From a virus (Duplodnaviria; Heunggongvirae; Uroviricota; Caudoviricetes): DNA of 40,004 nt. Shown here one piece after another: positions 5,916 through 39,398 of this stretch. Location: IMG/VR virus record IMGVR_UViG_2645727669_000017. The stretch is one strand, 5' to 3'. The translations under genes and the position numbers were made by a program. Position 1 is the first letter of the stretch; each line of letters begins with the position of its first letter. The notes beneath the pieces are model-generated. The model searched no databases. It saw nothing but the letters and a program-made list of their open reading frames with translations, and had not been told where the DNA came from.

Positions 5916-6442
5916 TTGCGTAACTCCGATAACTCGTTAAAACGTTCCATAAACATCCCGTAGGCATGGCCCGGTGCCAGTGGAATCACGTTGAACATCT
6001 CTGTTGCCGGGATGCCTTCCAGTACAGGCCAGAAAGAGCCATCATCAAGCCCGAGATCGCGGCGTTCGGTTGCCAGCATGATGAGATCGGCATATTTCAC
6101 GGGCGTACTCATAACCGGGGGTAACCCGTATTTCTCACGGATTACGGCGTCTATTTTTTCTTCCATCTGTTTATAGTCAGGAAGAAGGCGTTTCAGTGGA
6201 GCGGGGATGTCCTGGCAATACGCTTCTGTTGCATCATGCATTAACGCTTCAAAAGCAAATTCCTGCGGTACCAGCTGGCTGCAAAGAACCGCATGTTGGG
6301 CGACGCTGTAGAAGTGCGAAAGATGACCGGCAAAGCGACAGATATTTGAAAGGGAAACCGCGATATCGTTAATATCGATGTCGTCTTTATTTATCCTGTC
6401 ATAATAAAAATGCTTACCGGAAAAAGTTTTAATAAATGACAT
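5906..6442 (-). CDS. yfdR: HD-domain phosphohydrolase, likely a 5'-deoxynucleotidase (YfdR-like)
   Basis: Metal-binding motifs H..H and HD (VAQHAVL, LMHDATEAY); the 178-aa product from the internal ATG (MSFIKTF) with GGAG RBS matches the recalled size of E. coli YfdR. Confidence 0.7.
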   Translation of the reverse strand: MSFIKTFSGKHFYYDRINKDDIDINDIAVSLSNICRFAGHLSHFYSVAQHAVLCSQLVPQEFAFEALMHDATEAYCQDIPAPLKRLLPDYKQMEEKIDAVIREKYGLPPVMSTPVKYADLIMLATERRDLGLDDGSFWPVLEGIPATEMFNVIPLAPGHAYGMFMERFNELSELRKCA

Positions 6443-6569: not shown

Positions 6570-7394
6570 TCAGGCGGTGAAAGTACCAATAAAGGTTTCT
6601 ACTTTGCTGTCTTTGAATTTCTCAACAAGCAGATCACGAAATTCGTTAGCCATTTCTTCCTGCACTGCTTCCAGCTGAATAATGCGCAGAACCAGTACAG
6701 GACGATCGCCAGTGATAATGCTGAGGCGTAATTTAAATGGACGTTCTTTCAGACCTTCAAACGGAACGCATTTAAATTCAAATGCCACTGGCATAATATC
6801 TTTGGTCTTCGCTTCGACAGACTCCATCAGGGAGCGTTTGCCGCTGAAGTCATTATCTTCAAAATCAGCGGTCTGGTTTGCTTCAATCGTGATTTTACGG
6901 ACAGCCGCAGCCGCTTTTGTTGCCTGAATAGCGTCACCATTAGCATCAAAGCCCACAAGGTAGTCGGCCCAGTCTTCAATCCATTCTGCCAGTGACTTCT
7001 GGGAGTTACGCTCGCCATTAACAGACAACAGAGCAGAAAACGGTGCTGTCTTTTTTAGCTTGAGAGTGGCGGTGTTATCTGCGTGACCTGGTTCATCAAT
7101 AGTACCCAGGTTAAGCACACTGACGGCACGCATATTATCGGCATCGATAAAGCAGCGGGTGCCTTCATCTGCAAGATCTTTAGAATAACGGGTAAAGTCA
7201 TCGATGCTGGCAGTGGAAAGCGCACCACGGAAACGGAAACGATTTAAATTAAATTTTTCCAGATCATGAATGCGGAAATTCTCAGGCAATGCCACAGCAT
7301 CGGCACCAATCTTACTGATAATTTCATTAACACCCTGAGCAGAAATAAGGGCATGGATTTGATTAATTGCGGTTGCGTCTAAGTTCTGAGACAT
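6570..7394 (-). CDS. yfdQ: DUF2303-like early protein (YfdQ-like)
   Basis: 274-aa ORF in an operon with the HD phosphohydrolase; length and context fit my recollection of the CPS-53 yfdP-Q-R-S arrangement. Confidence 0.5.
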
Positions 7395-10444: not shown

Positions 10445-10718
10445 TTCTGCAATTCCGGGACGTTACACTGTTCAGGCACCTTATAAAGCGGGTGCCGGGA
10501 TTGGCGTCCTGAAATTGTCAACGGCGATGTATGACGCGCCAGCGTCTTTTTTATCGTCCGCATTTGCTCACATCCAGATTATGGTGGGCTGGGCGGGGGC
10601 ACCGAAAGGTGCGCCGGTCTCCGTTGACGCCGGTTACGCCAACCCCGTCCAGTTCACCACCAGTGAAATTGGCGTTTCCGGTGGTGGAAGTTTTTCACTG
10701 TCAACGGAGGCTGCCATC

Positions 10719-13779: not shown

Positions 13780-14165
13780 AGCTGATCCTGCCTTTTCCGC
13801 CCAGCGTGAACACGTACTGGCGACACCCCAACAAAGGGGCGTTTGCTGGTAAGAGCCTGATAAGCTCGGCGGGGCGAAAATTCCAGAGCGCGGCGTGCGC
13901 AGCAATAGTTGAGCAGTTACGTCGTCTGCCGAAACCAACGTCGGCACCTGCTTCAGTGGAGATCGTGTTGTTTCCTCCGGATAACCGGATCCGCGATCTG
14001 GACAACTATAACAAGGCGCTGTTTGACGCCCTGACCCATGCGGGTGTGTGGGAAGACGACAGTCAGGTGAAAAGAATGCTGGTGGAGTGGGGACCGGTTA
14101 TCCCGAAAGGGAAGGTCGAGATCACTATCAGTAAGTACGAGAAAACGGCGGGTGCAGCCGCCTGA
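13776..14165 (+). CDS. rusA: RusA Holliday junction resolvase
   Basis: 129-aa ORF with RusA-like LPFPPSVNTYWRH and DLDNYNKALFDALT motifs. Confidence 0.85.
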   Translation: MKLILPFPPSVNTYWRHPNKGAFAGKSLISSAGRKFQSAACAAIVEQLRRLPKPTSAPASVEIVLFPPDNRIRDLDNYNKALFDALTHAGVWEDDSQVKRMLVEWGPVIPKGKVEITISKYEKTAGAAA

Positions 14166-14184
14166 TCAAGAGGAGAAACGAAGT

Positions 14185-14994
14185 ATGAATAATCTGATGG
14201 TCATTGATGGTATTGAAGTTCGTCGTGATGCTTATGGGCGTTACAGCCTGAACGATCTGCATCGCGCAGCAGTAGCATCTGGTGCAAATGCCAGAACCAA
14301 GGAGCCGGGAAAGTTTCTTTCCAGCCAACAAACTGTTGAGCTTGTTCATGAATTGACCAACACCCAGAATTTGGGTGTTGACCCGGTGAGTGTGATTCAT
14401 GGGGGAAATGAACGGGGAACGTATGTCTGCAAGGAACTGGTGTATGCCTATGCAATGTGGATCAGCCCGTCATTCCATCTGAAGGTGATCCGTACTTTCG
14501 ATATGGTAACCAGCGCACCGGAAAAATTATCCGGACAGGCTGCTGACAAGATGCAGGCTGGCGTGATCCTGCTGGACTTTATGCGCCGGGAGTTAAACCT
14601 GTCTAACTCTTCAGTGCTTGGTGCCTGTCAGAAACTCCAGGAGGCTGTTGGCTTACCGAATCTGGCACCGCGCTATGCCATTGATGCTCCTGCTGATGCA
14701 CACGATGGCTCAAGTCGCCCGACACTGTCACTGAGTGCACTGCTGAAACAGTATGGTATACGCCTGACGGCTAATCAGGCATATCACCAGATGGTGAAAC
14801 TGGGGATCGTCGAGCAGCGCGAACGATACAGCCGTACCGCGATTAACAACATCAAAAAATTCTGGTCGCTGACAGCGAAAGGCTGCATGTTCGGCAAGAA
14901 CATCACCAGTCCCGCAAATCCGCGCGAGACGCAGCCGCATTTCTTCGAATCCCGATTCTCTGAGCTGTTAAAGCTGCTCGATACCGTTCATTGA
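14185..14994 (+). CDS. KilA-N domain protein
   Basis: N-terminal KilA-N signature (VIHGGNERGTYVCKELVYAYAMWISPSFHLKVIRTF); internal ATG 14185 preceded by AAGAGGAG RBS. Confidence 0.7.
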   Translation: MNNLMVIDGIEVRRDAYGRYSLNDLHRAAVASGANARTKEPGKFLSSQQTVELVHELTNTQNLGVDPVSVIHGGNERGTYVCKELVYAYAMWISPSFHLKVIRTFDMVTSAPEKLSGQAADKMQAGVILLDFMRRELNLSNSSVLGACQKLQEAVGLPNLAPRYAIDAPADAHDGSSRPTLSLSALLKQYGIRLTANQAYHQMVKLGIVEQRERYSRTAINNIKKFWSLTAKGCMFGKNITSPANPRETQPHFFESRFSELLKLLDTVH

Positions 14995-34223: not shown

Positions 34224-34967
34224 ATGACAGAGACAGAATCAGCGATTCTGGCGCACGCCCGGCGATGTGCGCCAGCGGAGTCGTGCGGCTTCGTGGTGAG
34301 AACGCCGGAGGGGGAAAGATATTTTCCCTGCGTGAATATCTCCGGTGAGCCGGAGGAGTATTTCCGGATGTCGCCGGAGGACTGGCTGCAGGCAGAAATG
34401 CAGGGTGAGATTGTGGCGCTGGTCCACAGTCACCCCGGTGGTCTGCCCTGGCTGAGTGAGGCCGATCGGCGGCTGCAGGTGCAGAGTGATTTGCCGTGGT
34501 GGCTGGTCTGCCGGGGGGCGATTTACAAGTTCCGCTGTGTGCCACATCTTACCGGGCGGCGCTTTGAGCACGGGGTGACGGACTGTTACACGCTGTTCCG
34601 GGATGCTTACCATCTGGCGGGGATTGAGATGCCGGATTTTCATCGCGAGGATGACTGGTGGCGTAACGGTCAGAATCTCTATCTGGATAATCTGGAGGCC
34701 ACAGGGCTGTATCAGGTGCCGTTGTCAGCGGCGCAGCCGGGCGATGTGCTGCTGTGCTGTTTTGGTTCATCGGTGCCGAATCATGCCGCCATTTACTGTG
34801 GTGACGGCGAGCTGCTGCACCATATTCCTGAACAACTGAGCAAACGAGAGAGGTATACCGACAAATGGCAGCGACGCACACACTCCCTCTGGCGTCACCG
34901 GGCATGGCACGCATCTGCCTTTACGGGGATTTACAACGATTTGGTCGCCGCATCGACCTTCGTGTGA
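34224..34967 (+). CDS. K: Tail assembly protein K (JAB/MPN plus NlpC/P60-like domains)
   Basis: MTETESAILAHARRCAPAESCGF...HSHPGG (JAB motif) closely matches lambda gpK as I recall it; internal ATG 34224 just after the L stop. Confidence 0.9.
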   Translation: MTETESAILAHARRCAPAESCGFVVRTPEGERYFPCVNISGEPEEYFRMSPEDWLQAEMQGEIVALVHSHPGGLPWLSEADRRLQVQSDLPWWLVCRGAIYKFRCVPHLTGRRFEHGVTDCYTLFRDAYHLAGIEMPDFHREDDWWRNGQNLYLDNLEATGLYQVPLSAAQPGDVLLCCFGSSVPNHAAIYCGDGELLHHIPEQLSKRERYTDKWQRRTHSLWRHRAWHASAFTGIYNDLVAASTFV

Positions 34968-35506
34968 AAACGGGGGCTGAAGCCATCCGGGCGCTGGCCA
35001 CGCAGCTTCCGGCGTTTCGCCAGAAACTGAATGAGGGCTGGTATCAGGTGCGCATTTCCGGGCGTGATGCAGGCGAAAACGAATTATCTGCCCGTCTTAA
35101 TGAGCCGCTGGCAAATGGTGCCGTGATCCACATCGTACCGCGTCTGGCGGGTGCCAAAAGTGGCGGTATTTTTCAGGCAGTGCTGGGTGCGGCGCTAATT
35201 GCTACGGCAATCTGGATGCCGGGGCTTAGTATTGTTGCAAGTAATCTCATGTTCTCTCTTGGGGCAGGTATGGTTTTAGGCGGTGTTGCGCAGATGCTGG
35301 CACCGAAAGCCAAAACGCCTAAAGTGTCAGCCACTGATAACGGTAAGCAAAATACCTATTTTTCCTCATTGGATAACATGGTTGCCCAGGGCAATGTCCT
35401 GCCTGTTCTGTACGGTGAAATGCGCGTGGGGTCACGTGTGGCATCTCAGGAGATCAGCACGGCAGATGAAGGGGATGGTGGTCAGGTTGTGGTAATTGGG
35501 CGGTAA
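34865..35506 (+). CDS. I: Tail assembly protein I
   Basis: MAATHTLPLASPGMARICLYGDLQRFGRRIDLRV... and C-terminus VVIGR match lambda gpI as I recall it; overlaps the 3' end of K in another frame. Confidence 0.85.
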   Translation: MAATHTLPLASPGMARICLYGDLQRFGRRIDLRVKTGAEAIRALATQLPAFRQKLNEGWYQVRISGRDAGENELSARLNEPLANGAVIHIVPRLAGAKSGGIFQAVLGAALIATAIWMPGLSIVASNLMFSLGAGMVLGGVAQMLAPKAKTPKVSATDNGKQNTYFSSLDNMVAQGNVLPVLYGEMRVGSRVASQEISTADEGDGGQVVVIGR

Positions 35507-35578
35507 TATTATTTACTCATGTTCTAACTGATTTAATATTTATATCGAACACTGATAATTATTCTGTTGGTTAGCTAT

Positions 35579-35917
35579 ATGAACAAAACGATTTTATTCT
35601 GCACGATTATTGCCTTAACAGGATGTAAATCTTTGGATTACGTAAAATCCGGCAAGCCTGTAATGGAAGGTAATTCATTAAAAAATATTGATGAATTGTC
35701 AGGCTGCATATCCAGACAATGGGCTGGTAATGGAACACCTATAACATCCCTTCCTATTGAGAATGGGGTAAGCCTTTTAGTTCCACAGGCTATGGGTGGG
35801 TATGATGTTGTGCTTGATATCAAAAAAGCAGGAAATGGCAGTAGTTTTACTCTTTATGAACGCGTACCAGCATTAACGCCAAAAATTTTTGCTGATAGTG
35901 TTAATGCATGTAAATAA
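35579..35917 (+). CDS. Lipoprotein moron between I and J; candidate superinfection-exclusion or surface factor
   Basis: Lipoprotein signal peptide and lipobox (MNKTILFCTIIALTGC); AT-rich island with its own promoter-like upstream region (35507-35578) and terminator; lambda has no gene at this position. Confidence 0.6.
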   Translation: MNKTILFCTIIALTGCKSLDYVKSGKPVMEGNSLKNIDELSGCISRQWAGNGTPITSLPIENGVSLLVPQAMGGYDVVLDIKKAGNGSSFTLYERVPALTPKIFADSVNACK

Positions 35918-35941
35918 TAGTTAATCCTGCCGTAACTCATG

Positions 35942-35969
35942 AGCCGCCTTTTGGGCGGCTTTGTTGTTT
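35942..35969 (+). terminator. Rho-independent terminator after the lipoprotein moron
   Basis: AGCCGCC-TTTTG-GGCGGCT followed by TTGTTGTTT. Confidence 0.5.
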
Positions 35970-35983
35970 ATGGAGTGTGAGGA

Positions 35984-38146
35984 ATGGGTAAAGGTAGCAG
36001 TAAGGGGCATACCCCGCGCGAAGCGAAGGACAACCTGAAGTCCACGCAGCTGCTGAGTGTGATCGATGCCATCAGCGAAGGGCCGGTTGAAGGTCCGGTG
36101 GATGGATTAAAAAGCGTGCTGCTGAACAGTACGCCGGTGCTGGACAGTGAGGGGAATACCAATATCTCCGGCGTCACGGTGGTGTTCCGGGCAGGTGAGC
36201 AGGAGCAGACACCGCCTGAGGGCTTTGAATCCTCCGGCTCCGAGACGGTGCTGGGTACGGAAGTGAAATATGACACGCCGATCACCCGGACCATCACGTC
36301 GGCAAACATTGACCGTCTGCGTTTTACTTTCGGCGTGCAGGCACTGGTGGAAACCACCTCAAAGGGTGACCGGAATCCGTCGGAAGTCCGCCTGCTGGTT
36401 CAGATACAACGTAACGGTGGCTGGGTGACGGAAAAAGACATCACCATTAAGGGCAAAACCACGTCGCAGTATCTGGCCTCGGTGGTGGTGGATAACCTGC
36501 CGCCGCGCCCGTTCAATATCCGGATGCGCAGGATGACGCCGGACAGCACCACAGACCAGCTGCAGAACAAAACGCTCTGGTCGTCATACACCGAAATCAT
36601 CGATGTGAAACAGTGCTACCCGAACACGGCACTGGTCGGCGTACAGGTGGACTCGGAGCAGTTCGGCAGCCAGCAGGTGAGCCGTAATTATCATCTTCGC
36701 GGGCGCATTCTGCAGGTGCCGTCGAACTATAACCCGCAGACGCGGCAATACAGCGGTATCTGGGACGGAACGTTAAAACCGGCATACAGCAACAACCCGG
36801 CCTGGTGTCTGTGGGATATGCTGACCCATCCGCGCTACGGCATGGGGAAACGTCTTGGTGCGGCGGATGTGGATAAATGGGCGCTGTATGTCATCGGCCA
36901 GTACTGCGACCAGGCAGTGCCGGACGGCTTTGGCGGCACGGAGCCGCGCATCACCTGTAATGCCTACCTGACCACACAGCGCAAGGCGTGGGATGTGCTC
37001 AGTGATTTCTGCTCGGCGATGCGCTGTATGCCGGTATGGAACGGGCAGACGCTGACGTTCGTGCAGGACCGGCCATCGGATAAGGTGTGGACCTATAACC
37101 GCAGTAATGTGGTGATGCCGGATGATGGCGCGCCGTTCCGCTACAGCTTCAGCGCCCTGAAAGACCGCCATAATGCCGTTGAGGTGAACTGGATTGACCC
37201 GAACAACGGCTGGGAGACGGCAACAGAGCTTGTGGAGGACACGCAGGCCATTGCCCGTTACGGTCGTAACGTCACGAAGATGGATGCCTTTGGCTGTACC
37301 AGCCGGGGGCAGGCACACCGCGCCGGGCTGTGGCTGATTAAAACAGAACTGCTGGAAACGCAGACCGTGGACTTCTGCGTGGGCGCAGAAGGGCTTCGCC
37401 ATGTGCCGGGCGATGTCATTGAAATCTGTGATGATGACTATGCCGGTATCAGCACCGGCGGGCGCGTGCTGGCGGTAAACAGCCAGACCCGGACGCTGAC
37501 GCTCGACCGTGAAATCACGCTGCCATCCTCCGGTACCACGCTGATAAGCCTGGTTGACGGAAGTGGCAATCCGGTCAGCGTGGAGGTTCAGTCCGTCACC
37601 GACGGCGTGAAGGTAAAAGTGAGCCGTGTTCCTGACGGCGTTGCTGAATACAGCGTATGGGGGCTGAAGCTGCCGACGTTGCGCCAGCGCCTGTTCCGCT
37701 GCGTGAGTATCCGTGAGAACGACGACGGCACGTACGCCATCACAGCCGTGCAGCATGTCCCGGAAAAAGAGGCCATCGTGGATAACGGGGCGCACTTTGA
37801 CGGCGACCAGAGCGGCACGGTGAATGGTGTCACGCCGCCAGCGGTGCAGCACCTGACCGCAGAAGTCACCGCAGACAGCGGGGAATATCAGGTGCTGGCG
37901 CGATGGGACACACCGAAGGTGGTGAAGGGCGTGAGCTTCATGCTCCGCCTGACCGTAACAGCAGACGACGGCAGTGAGCGGCTGGTCAGCACGGCCCGGA
38001 CGACGGAAACCACATACCGCTTCACGCAACTGGCCCTGGGAAACTACACGCTGACAGTCCGGGCGGCAAATGCCTGGGGGCAGCAGGGCGATCCGGCATC
38101 GGTATCGTTCCGGATTGCCGCACCGGCAGCACCTGTCACGGATTGA
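35984..38146 (+). CDS. J: Tail tip / host specificity protein J, N-terminal ~720 aa, ending prematurely because of a frameshift
   Basis: [26 protein letters not shown]... J-like through ...[10 protein letters not shown], then VTD-stop; lambda J is ~1130 aa in one frame. Confidence 0.85.
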
Positions 38147-39398
38147 ACTGACACCAGGCTATTTTCAGATAACAGCAACCCCGAAACTGGCCGTATATGA
38201 CCCGACGGTACAGTTTGAGTTCTGGTTCTCGGAAAAGCGGATTACCGATATCAGGCAGGTTGAAACCACAGCCCGCTATCTTGGCACGGCGCTGTACTGG
38301 ATAGCCGCCAGTAGCAATATCAAACCGGGCCATGATTATTACTTTTATATCCGCAGCGTGAACACCGTAGGCAAATCGGCATTTGTGGAGGCCGTCGGTC
38401 GGGCGAGCGATGATGCGGAAGGTTACCTGAATTTTTACAAAGGCCAGATAAACAAAACCCATCTCGGCAAGGAACTGCTGGAAAAAGTCGAGCTGACGGA
38501 GGATAACGCCAGCAAACTGGAGGAGTTTTCGAAAGAGTGGAAGGACGCCAACGATAAATGGAATGCCATGTGGGCCGTCAAAATTGAGCAGACCAAAGAC
38601 GGCAAACATTATGTCGCGGGTATTGGCCTCAGCATGGAGGACACGGAGGAAGGCAAACTGAGCCAGTTTCTGGTTGCCGCTAACCGTATCGCATTTATTG
38701 ACCCGGCAAACGGGAATGAAACGCCGATGTTTGTGGCGCAGGGCAACCAGATATTCATGAACGACGTGTTCCTGAAACGCCTGACGGCCCCCACCATTAC
38801 CAGCGGTGGAAATCCACCGGCATTTTCCCTGACACCAGACGGAAAGCTGACCGCTAAAAATGCGGATATCAGTGGCAGAGTGAATGCGAACGCCGGGACG
38901 CTCAACAATGTCACGGTAAATGAAAACTGTACGATTAAGGGCATGCTGGAGGCGACCCAAGTCAGAGGGGACTTCGTTAAAGCTGTATCCAAATCATTTC
39001 CGAAACAGGCTGGTACGTGGGGTAACACGGAAACACCAAACGGGACGGTTACAGTCACCATCAGCGATGATCATAACTTTGACCGTCAAATCATTATTCC
39101 GCCCATTATCTTTAACGGAATAGCGTATAGCTATCCGGGAAGTGGTAATAACCCGGGAGGTAAAAGTTACACGGGTTATGGTTTTGAAGTTCGCAAAAAC
39201 GGTGTATTAATCGCATCCAGAGAAACTAAAGGGGCCATTCCCGGTAGCTACAGTGCGGTTATTGATATGCCGAGTGGCAGGGGAAGCGTCACTCTGGAGT
39301 TTAAGGTTTTCCATAAAGGCAATCAGTGGGCAGGTAATATCACCGACTGTACGGTGATTGTGACCAAAAAAGCCGCTTCCGGCATCAGTATTCGTTGA
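38070..39398 (+). CDS. J: C-terminal receptor-binding portion of J in the +1 frame (J-like sequence begins ~38136)
   Basis: Frame-B ORF reads [31 protein letters not shown]... to the J C-terminus; the upstream part of this ORF overlaps the end of the N-terminal J ORF. Confidence 0.7.

Follow-up and report, generated by a model that had tools for sequence, protein, structure and literature searches.

A small lipoprotein gene lies between the tail genes I and J of a lambda-like Escherichia coli prophage, in a 40,004-nucleotide stretch of tailed-phage DNA (IMG/VR virus record IMGVR_UViG_2645727669_000017; Duplodnaviria, Heunggongvirae, Uroviricota, Caudoviricetes), which is called the window here. 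We conclude that this gene is a genuinely mobile moron of lambda/HK97-type tail operons. To judge from sequence comparisons, its product belongs to a family, PHROG 914, that is distinct from Cor, Llp, and Bor, is widespread, and has no assigned function. An earlier reading of the letters of the window (the sequence-only reading) had described a self-contained lipoprotein moron at this position and proposed a link to superinfection exclusion. The feature is real and correctly located, and it is not surprising in kind. As to its function, we tentatively favor an envelope-level exclusion factor against phages, an argument from analogy to which we give somewhat less than an even chance.

A predicted outer-membrane lipoprotein of PHROG 914

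Read from its ATG, the open reading frame (ORF) encodes 112 amino acids (aa), one fewer than the 113 of the sequence-only reading; read from an upstream TTG, it would encode 116. The N terminus is MNKTILFCTIIALTGC followed by KSLDYV..., with cleavage predicted before Cys16. Residues 1 to 15 form the signal peptide, made up of a basic n-region (M-N-K), the hydrophobic core TILFCTIIA, and the lipobox L-T-G-C16. By sequence criteria, the protein thus has the basic n-region, the hydrophobic h-region, and the [LVI][ASTVI][GAS]C lipobox of a bacterial lipoprotein; the LTGC motif noticed at the outset is present, and lipidation is predicted at Cys16, with Lys at position +2. Asp at +2 retains lipoproteins in the inner membrane, and other residues send them to the outer membrane via Lol. 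By this criterion the window protein, with Lys rather than Asp, is predicted to reach the outer membrane.

Residues 1 to 112 match positions 1 to 118 of the 118-position PHROG 914 profile (E = 7.3e-33), which carries no functional annotation and was the only match of the protein in a PHROG search at E ≤ 1. At the same threshold Pfam offered no family for it, Lambda_Bor and DUF3568 included, and a Pfam search with 61 diverse relatives gave nothing relevant. The sole NCBIfam match, VirB7, covers the signal peptide only (E = 0.08, far below the family cutoff), and matches of the family profile to PDB sequences were likewise at the level of the signal peptide. Relatives with 44 to 62% identity occur in Kluyvera, Klebsiella, Enterobacter, Citrobacter, Salmonella, and Jejubacter. 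An exhaustive profile search found 125 representative clusters, nearly all of them of proteins 105 to 125 aa long; two long matches (1,047 and 782 aa) in the representative search were repeat-rich false positives.

All 61 of the diverse relatives match PHROG 914. Cys16, Cys43, and Cys111 are invariant over these distant members, and Pro27, Trp48, and Gly63 are nearly so. A lipobox is present in 58 of the 61; Asp never occupies +2 in these 58, of which 48 contain exactly two additional cysteines. The combination of a lipobox, the absence of Asp at +2, and the pattern of two further cysteines suggests an outer-membrane-sorted periplasmic domain with one disulfide. We infer that this bond joins Cys43 and Cys111, on the basis of their conservation and the periplasmic location and not of a contact read from the model.

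An AlphaFold2 model built on a 20-sequence alignment (pLDDT, 86.5; pTM, 0.77) predicts a compact domain of beta-alpha-beta-beta-beta-beta-alpha topology after a tether of ∼10 residues. Its nearest structural neighbor, Francisella Flpp3, is a weak one (Foldseek E = 9e-3; TM, ∼0.5), and T5 Llp (PDB 8A60 chain B) is not among the top structural matches of the model. The fold likenesses of the modeled domain, at 6 to 13% identity, appear too generic to assign a function. In a viral structure library, the best match was a protein of Pseudomonas phage phiAH14a. It is a true family member, with an hhalign probability of 99.7 once its mis-annotated start was fixed: the annotated start lies too far downstream, and the true ORF has the lipobox LSGC.

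A mobile gene of lambda- and HK97-type tail operons

The placement between I and J is confirmed by the ORFs and by the RefSeq locus of Escherichia coli strain E2, which is identical and lists I, the hypothetical protein WP_001332187.1, and J. We aligned the region locally to the I-J spacer of lambda_2E9, a lambda-type phage in which this spacer is 60 bp long. Homology stops at 35508 and restarts at 35944, within a hairpin; because it restarts inside the hairpin, we place the cassette-specific DNA at approximately 35509 to 35943 (Table 1). The cassette is AT rich, as first described: the gene has a GC fraction of 0.37 and the 5′ leader one of 0.30, and values along the cassette run from 0.30 to 0.42, versus 0.56 to 0.60 in the flanks. 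Among phage records, 107 have I and J flanks that are 90 to 99% identical and lack the cassette, which, together with the lambda_2E9 spacer, bears out the statement that lambda has no gene here.

Homologues occupy four slots of tail operons (Table 1), always on the same strand as the tail genes. Between slots the lipoprotein is 48 to 59% identical, whereas the neighboring tail proteins are mostly 24 to 40% identical to those of the window. Each tail-operon copy is poorer in GC than the DNA on either side of it, and a GC hairpin with a T-run comes after each one. The four slots, the low GC, the trailing hairpins, and conservation above that of the neighboring tail proteins make the case for a moron stronger than the sequence-only reading could know. 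An extra gene between normally adjacent genes, with deviant GC and in varied genomic contexts, is what the term describes. As to a promoter of its own, nothing scores ≥9/12 on the plus strand, and there are only 8/12 matches in AT-rich DNA. A terminator-like hairpin and T-run were seen in the window, homologous to those of the empty lambda spacer, and homologues elsewhere have one each.

Some members lie outside tail operons. In the early-left region of phiAH14a, the family member, paired with a second gpI-like gene, is found downstream of a cI-like repressor and on the same strand. Such a site, downstream of the repressor and in its orientation, is where lysogen-expressed defense genes typically sit. 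The published description of phiAH14a notes lipoprotein-gpI pairs in the tail module as well, and also in the satellite phage AH14b. One distant member adjoins a phage replication module. Members in Dyella (20 to 23% identity) are chromosomal, with no phage genes near; their gene order is conserved, with two genes of the TonB-dependent receptor type and then PpnN on one side of the lipoprotein and a convergent GspH-like gene and then UvrB on the other. These chromosomal relatives suggest that the domain is an ordinary envelope lipoprotein module recruited by phages.

The K-I slot holds two further observations. In Pseudomonas aeruginosa phage vB_PaeS-D14P, an unannotated family member of 113 aa with the lipobox LAGC fills the K-I gap (L089 5956-6297). 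In the HK97-like phage Fraca, a second small ORF (89 aa, without a lipobox) lies directly upstream of the lipoprotein homologue (L002 3725-3994), so that the K-I slot can hold cargo genes in tandem.

Table 1. Features of the lipoprotein cassette in the window, and places of PHROG 914 members elsewhere
Feature	Position	Strand	Description
Cassette-specific DNA, ∼435 bp	35509-35943	+	Replaces ∼24 bp of the lambda I-J spacer; low GC
Leader, ∼30% GC	35509-35578	+	Sub-threshold sigma-70-like matches only; no clear Shine-Dalgarno sequence
Lipoprotein ORF	35579-35917	+	Intact, 112 aa from ATG; predicted PHROG 914 member
Hairpin and interrupted T-run	35941-35970	+	Terminator-like; directly upstream of the J ribosome-binding site
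Tail assembly protein I (left flank)	34865-35506	+	ORF, flank matches, and RefSeq locus
Host-specificity protein J (right flank)	35984-39398	+	Split into ORFs of 720 and 442 aa
I-J slot			E. coli
K-I slot			Klebsiella, Kluyvera, several IMG/VR prophages, HK97-like phage Fraca, P. aeruginosa phage vB_PaeS-D14P
T-H slot (chaperone-tape measure)			HK97-like prophages of Enterobacter, Citrobacter, and Salmonella
Slot directly after J, prophage end			K. oxytoca
phiAH14a lipoprotein/gpI-like pair	Record 13998-14984 (L088 6959-7945)	Minus strand of record	
Dyella telluris and metagenome contig members	7001-7342 of L091-L093		

Prevalence and selection in E. coli

The 477-bp cassette was found at ≥95% identity in 337 of 5,426 complete E. 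coli genomes (∼6%), at 349 places that are almost all chromosomal. Its gene is always annotated as hypothetical, and the carriers are E. coli from many hosts. An I-J junction of this type is present in 4,304 E. coli genomes; in a spread sample of these junctions most were empty, with a spacer of ∼60 bp, and the PHROG 914 lipoprotein gene was the sole occupant seen. A scan of species-representative genomes found one locus only, as expected of an accessory gene. The exact window protein is recorded on at least 1,000 contigs.

The gene is intact in 58 of the 61 E. coli copies examined. These 58 copies fall into 13 DNA alleles with 11 synonymous changes over 75 sites and 6 non-synonymous changes over 261 sites, and the resulting per-site ratio of ∼0.16 indicates purifying selection. 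Disruptions affect 3 of the 61 lipoprotein genes, compared with 10 of ∼44 copies of the ten-times-longer J.

Borders and expression of the cassette

The sequence-only reading had posited a promoter-like upstream region, which we could not substantiate: no sigma-70 consensus was found on the plus strand. The best candidates picked by eye, TTTACT-16-TAATAT and TTTAAT-16-GATAAT, each match at 8 of 12 positions, which is unremarkable at 30% GC. Direct reading of the leader gave no clear Shine-Dalgarno sequence before the ORF, and among the 58 intact copies there are five leader variants that differ by a few bases. Rfam and tRNA scans found no RNA gene in the cassette region.

Two homologues do have a Shine-Dalgarno sequence (GGAGG/GGAGGG), which pairs with an upstream CCTCC/CCCTCC to form a small hairpin before the start codon (L008 ∼5960-6000 and the phiAH14a stretch L088 ∼6925-6958). 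A hairpin of this kind could serve translational control in these two homologues.

At the 3′ border, a hairpin at 35941 to 35961 (9-bp stem with 6 G-C pairs; fold z-score of −2.5 versus shuffles) is followed by TTTGTTGTTTAT. The empty spacer of lambda shares this hairpin, its T-run, and the GGAG that precedes J (window, CCGCCTTTTGGGCGGCTTTGTTGTTTATGGAG; lambda, CCGCCTCCGGGCGGTTTTGTCGTTTATGGAG). The two stretches concerned are 35941 to 35983 of the window and 429 to 467 of lambda_2E9 (L003). The terminator of the earlier description is therefore there as a structure, but it is homologous to the hairpin of the empty I-J spacer and is not unique to the cassette. The description of the cassette as a self-contained transcription unit could not be substantiated: no promoter was detected, copies in the K-I slot begin only ∼32 to 40 bp after K, and the hairpin is common to lambda.

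The edges also carry short repeats. The repeat TTGGGCGG occurs at the end of I (35496-35515) and in the 3′ arm of the hairpin (35951-35970), and ACTCATG occurs twice, at 35515 to 35521 and 35935 to 35941. As target-site duplications these repeats were rejected, being too short to tell recombination joints from chance.

From the orientation of the gene, which is that of the tail genes, we infer that it would be transcribed at least with the late operon, antiterminated RNA polymerase passing the hairpin; on the sequence, this appears to be the only expression route that can be deduced. Such a route raises the alternative that the protein helps only in the late phase of the phage's own cycle and does nothing in the lysogen, acting on the envelope at lysis or as a gpI-type partner and made by late-operon read-through only. 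The constant co-orientation with tail genes fits this view, as does the gap of 32 to 40 bp between K and the start codon, which leaves hardly any room for a promoter. Two of the four tail-operon slots (K-I and I-J) also place the gene next to I, and the phiAH14a member, away from the tail module, has an additional gpI-like gene as its partner. However, the gene is accessory, with the junction in 4,304 E. coli genomes and the cassette in 337, and lambda does without it. An exported lipoprotein cannot join tail assembly in the cytoplasm, and the 3′ end of I varies (84% versus 100% identity) beside the same lipoprotein allele. We consider the late-helper explanation improbable.

The receptor-binding end of J

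Cor (of phi80, N15, and HK022) and T5 Llp are outer-membrane lipoproteins that inactivate FhuA. The sequence-only reading pointed to proteins of this type, which would imply that the window protein binds the periplasmic face of the receptor used by its own J and inactivates it. Several features fit: the expected outer-membrane lipoprotein has a short tether with a Cor-like motif, the gene adjoins J in the window and in K. oxytoca lies directly after J, which is the position of Cor, and 2 of the 61 relatives weakly match the Cor PHROG (E, ∼5e-4).

As a family assignment, Cor-type exclusion lipoprotein did not hold, since similarity to Cor, T5 Llp, and Lpp010 of phage mEp010 ends at the signal peptide. 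The window protein does not match the Cor family (PHROG 1119) or any Pfam family; HK022 Cor gives a BLAST E value of 1.1 and a hidden Markov model (HMM) alignment that covers the signal peptide and a short tether only, and the PDB sequence search touches Llp at residues 1 to 20 only. The mature part, of ∼96 aa with a predicted alpha/beta fold, also differs from the ∼60 aa of Cor and Llp, and, as noted above, Llp is absent from the top structural matches.

The loci themselves also argue against a blocker of the phage's own receptor. Among loci with a lipoprotein ≥98% identical, the last 250 aa of J define four clusters (24, 8, 3, and 2 loci). Identity among three of these clusters is 56 to 73%, the fourth aligns to the others over only ∼50 residues, and the DNA of the receptor end is often unalignable. 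The lipoprotein thus does not co-vary with the receptor-binding end of J, and homologues in the T-H slot lie far from J altogether. Since different J ends could use one receptor, this lowers a Cor/Llp-type mechanism without doing more, and we regard such a mechanism as distinctly unlikely.

The J gene of the window has a feature of its own. Its frame is broken by a 1-nucleotide insertion near 38134 (GCAGCACC-T-GTC) relative to the intact 1,137-aa J of close relatives. Unless the extra base is a sequencing error, the J of this prophage is probably a pseudogene.

Candidate functions

The envelope-level exclusion that we tentatively favor follows from the analogy with other morons of these slots, which encode lipoproteins or membrane proteins, and from the linkage of the family to tail modules. 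Cleavage and lipidation at Cys16 are expected to yield a mature protein of ∼96 aa, anchored in the inner leaflet of the outer membrane and facing the periplasm on its ∼10-residue tether. At the envelope it would exclude superinfecting siphophages of the lambda/HK97 type or, alternatively, spare progeny wasteful adsorption to, and injection into, lysing cells and debris. Its target would not be the phage's own outer-membrane receptor, unlike those of Cor and Llp, and is more likely to be something shared, such as a post-adsorption step in the periplasm.

Several results weigh against an exclusion factor. The promoter scan upstream of the ORF found no sigma-70-like site of ≥9/12 on the plus strand, so that expression in the lysogen is at best putative. 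No homology was seen to any of the proven exclusion lipoproteins compared, the signal peptide aside, and a PADLOC-DB search at E ≤ 1 gave no match for the window protein and four homologues. Sources that list family members name them only hypothetical, Lipoprotein, or Phage protein, and literature searches on the RefSeq accession and the PHROG number found nothing. To judge by its chromosomal relatives, the domain does not appear to be intrinsically anti-phage. The occurrence of one lipoprotein allele with at least four receptor-binding types of J undercuts the simplest rationale of receptor masking. The gene does not appear to be preferentially retained in decaying prophages; per kilobase it is disrupted about as often as J.

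A more specific form of exclusion is a long shot: PHROG 914 might be a receptor-independent class that, anchored beneath the outer membrane, intercepts the conserved channel-forming proteins, gpI or the tape measure, that lambda/HK97-type tail tips release into the periplasm, and so blocks the entry of siphophage DNA whatever the receptor. Interception of this kind would explain why the family travels with lambda-type tail modules, why it often adjoins I, why phiAH14a has a spare gpI-like gene, and why the lipoprotein does not co-vary with the receptor-binding domain of J.

The protein could instead be cargo for host fitness or virulence, that is, an envelope lipoprotein that alters the serum, stress, or antimicrobial resistance or the adhesion of the lysogen, like Bor, Lom, and SodCI. 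Tail-operon slots do carry such genes; examples are sodCI and an Ail-like gene, found within the tail gene block of Gifsy-2. Few Gifsy-2 genes are highly expressed in lysogens, and sodCI is among them (PMC7067206). The housekeeping-like relatives on Dyella chromosomes and the presence of the cassette in E. coli of many hosts also agree with host cargo. In contrast, the lack of any Pfam match leaves nothing to link the protein to Lambda_Bor or other named families, the structural similarity to Flpp3 is weak and the fold generic, and no promoter for expression in the lysogen was detected. Members in Enterobacteriaceae and Pseudomonas are tied to lambda-type tail modules, which would be needless for a general fitness gene. 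Host cargo is therefore an unlikely explanation, and exclusion at the envelope remains the one that we put forward.

Far from the cassette, the early region of the prophage has Rfam matches above the gathering score at 10476 to 10664 on the plus strand. These are isrK (10476-10552) and a C4 antisense RNA (10577-10664), and they mark the antirepressor control module of the P1/P7 type.

Significance

Lipoprotein morons near tail genes, such as Cor, Llp, Bor, and the Lpp proteins of mEpimmI phages, are known to alter the host surface. PHROG 914 is a separate, larger family, with no Pfam model and an unannotated PHROG entry, yet ∼6% of complete E. coli genomes carry it, as do prophages of Klebsiella, Enterobacter, Citrobacter, Salmonella, Kluyvera, and Pseudomonas. 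Should the family exclude phages, it would be a common and so far unscored resistance determinant, possibly with a receptor-independent mechanism, and would bear on phage therapy and on the prediction of host range in Enterobacteriaceae. If it does not, it is one more conserved cargo gene of prophages.

Comparison with known systems

Flpp3, of the DUF3568 family, is an outer-membrane lipoprotein and virulence determinant of Francisella tularensis; it resembles the window protein in its generic fold only, and Flpp3 and other TBP-like or KA1-like alpha+beta domains are 6 to 12% identical to it. Cor and Llp are, like the window protein, small phage lipoproteins of the outer membrane (where the window protein is expected), encoded near tail or receptor-binding genes and with conserved cysteines. 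The N-terminal tether of the window protein loosely resembles that of Cor (C-x3-L-x-K-x-K-P). The mature parts differ, as described above, in length and fold. In phiAH14a, another lipoprotein, the 140-aa p83, was compared and set aside, with no homology beyond the signal peptide and tether.

The nearest tested precedent is provided by Lpp010 and Lpp021 of the mEpimmI coliphages, lipoprotein genes in or beside a lambda-like L-K-I-J tail module. Expressed from plasmids, they exclude their cognate phages, and Lpp010 also excludes lambda (PMC11893012). Lpp010, the one of the two that was compared, has 82 aa, is encoded on the opposite strand downstream of J, and aligns to PHROG 914 by hhalign over 16 residues of the signal peptide.

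In position, the closest parallels are the morons of HK97 and HK022, which occupy the same T-H, K-I, and I-J slots as PHROG 914, each as an extra gene between conserved tail genes. Juhala et al. reportedly described these tail-operon morons in 2000. HK97 gp15 is a superinfection exclusion protein. The slots are annotated with HK97 gp15 between T and H and with HK97 gp22 and gp23 and HK022 gp20, gp22, and gp23 between K and I and between I and J; Cor is also annotated as a moron in HK022. HMM scores of the family against HK97 gp15, gp22, and gp23 and HK022 gp22 and gp23, the set compared, are at chance level. At their N termini, HK97 gp15 and HK022 gp20 carry a hydrophobic segment but lack a lipobox and so, unlike the window protein, are not lipoproteins. 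The HK97 and HK022 morons, too, are closed by a hairpin, a T-run, and ATGG in the spacers immediately ahead of H, I, and J, and this arrangement looks like a common 3′ boundary module of moron slots in tail operons. The I-J spacer of lambda, with its hairpin, may then be the bare 3′ boundary of such a slot, either an empty slot or a scar.

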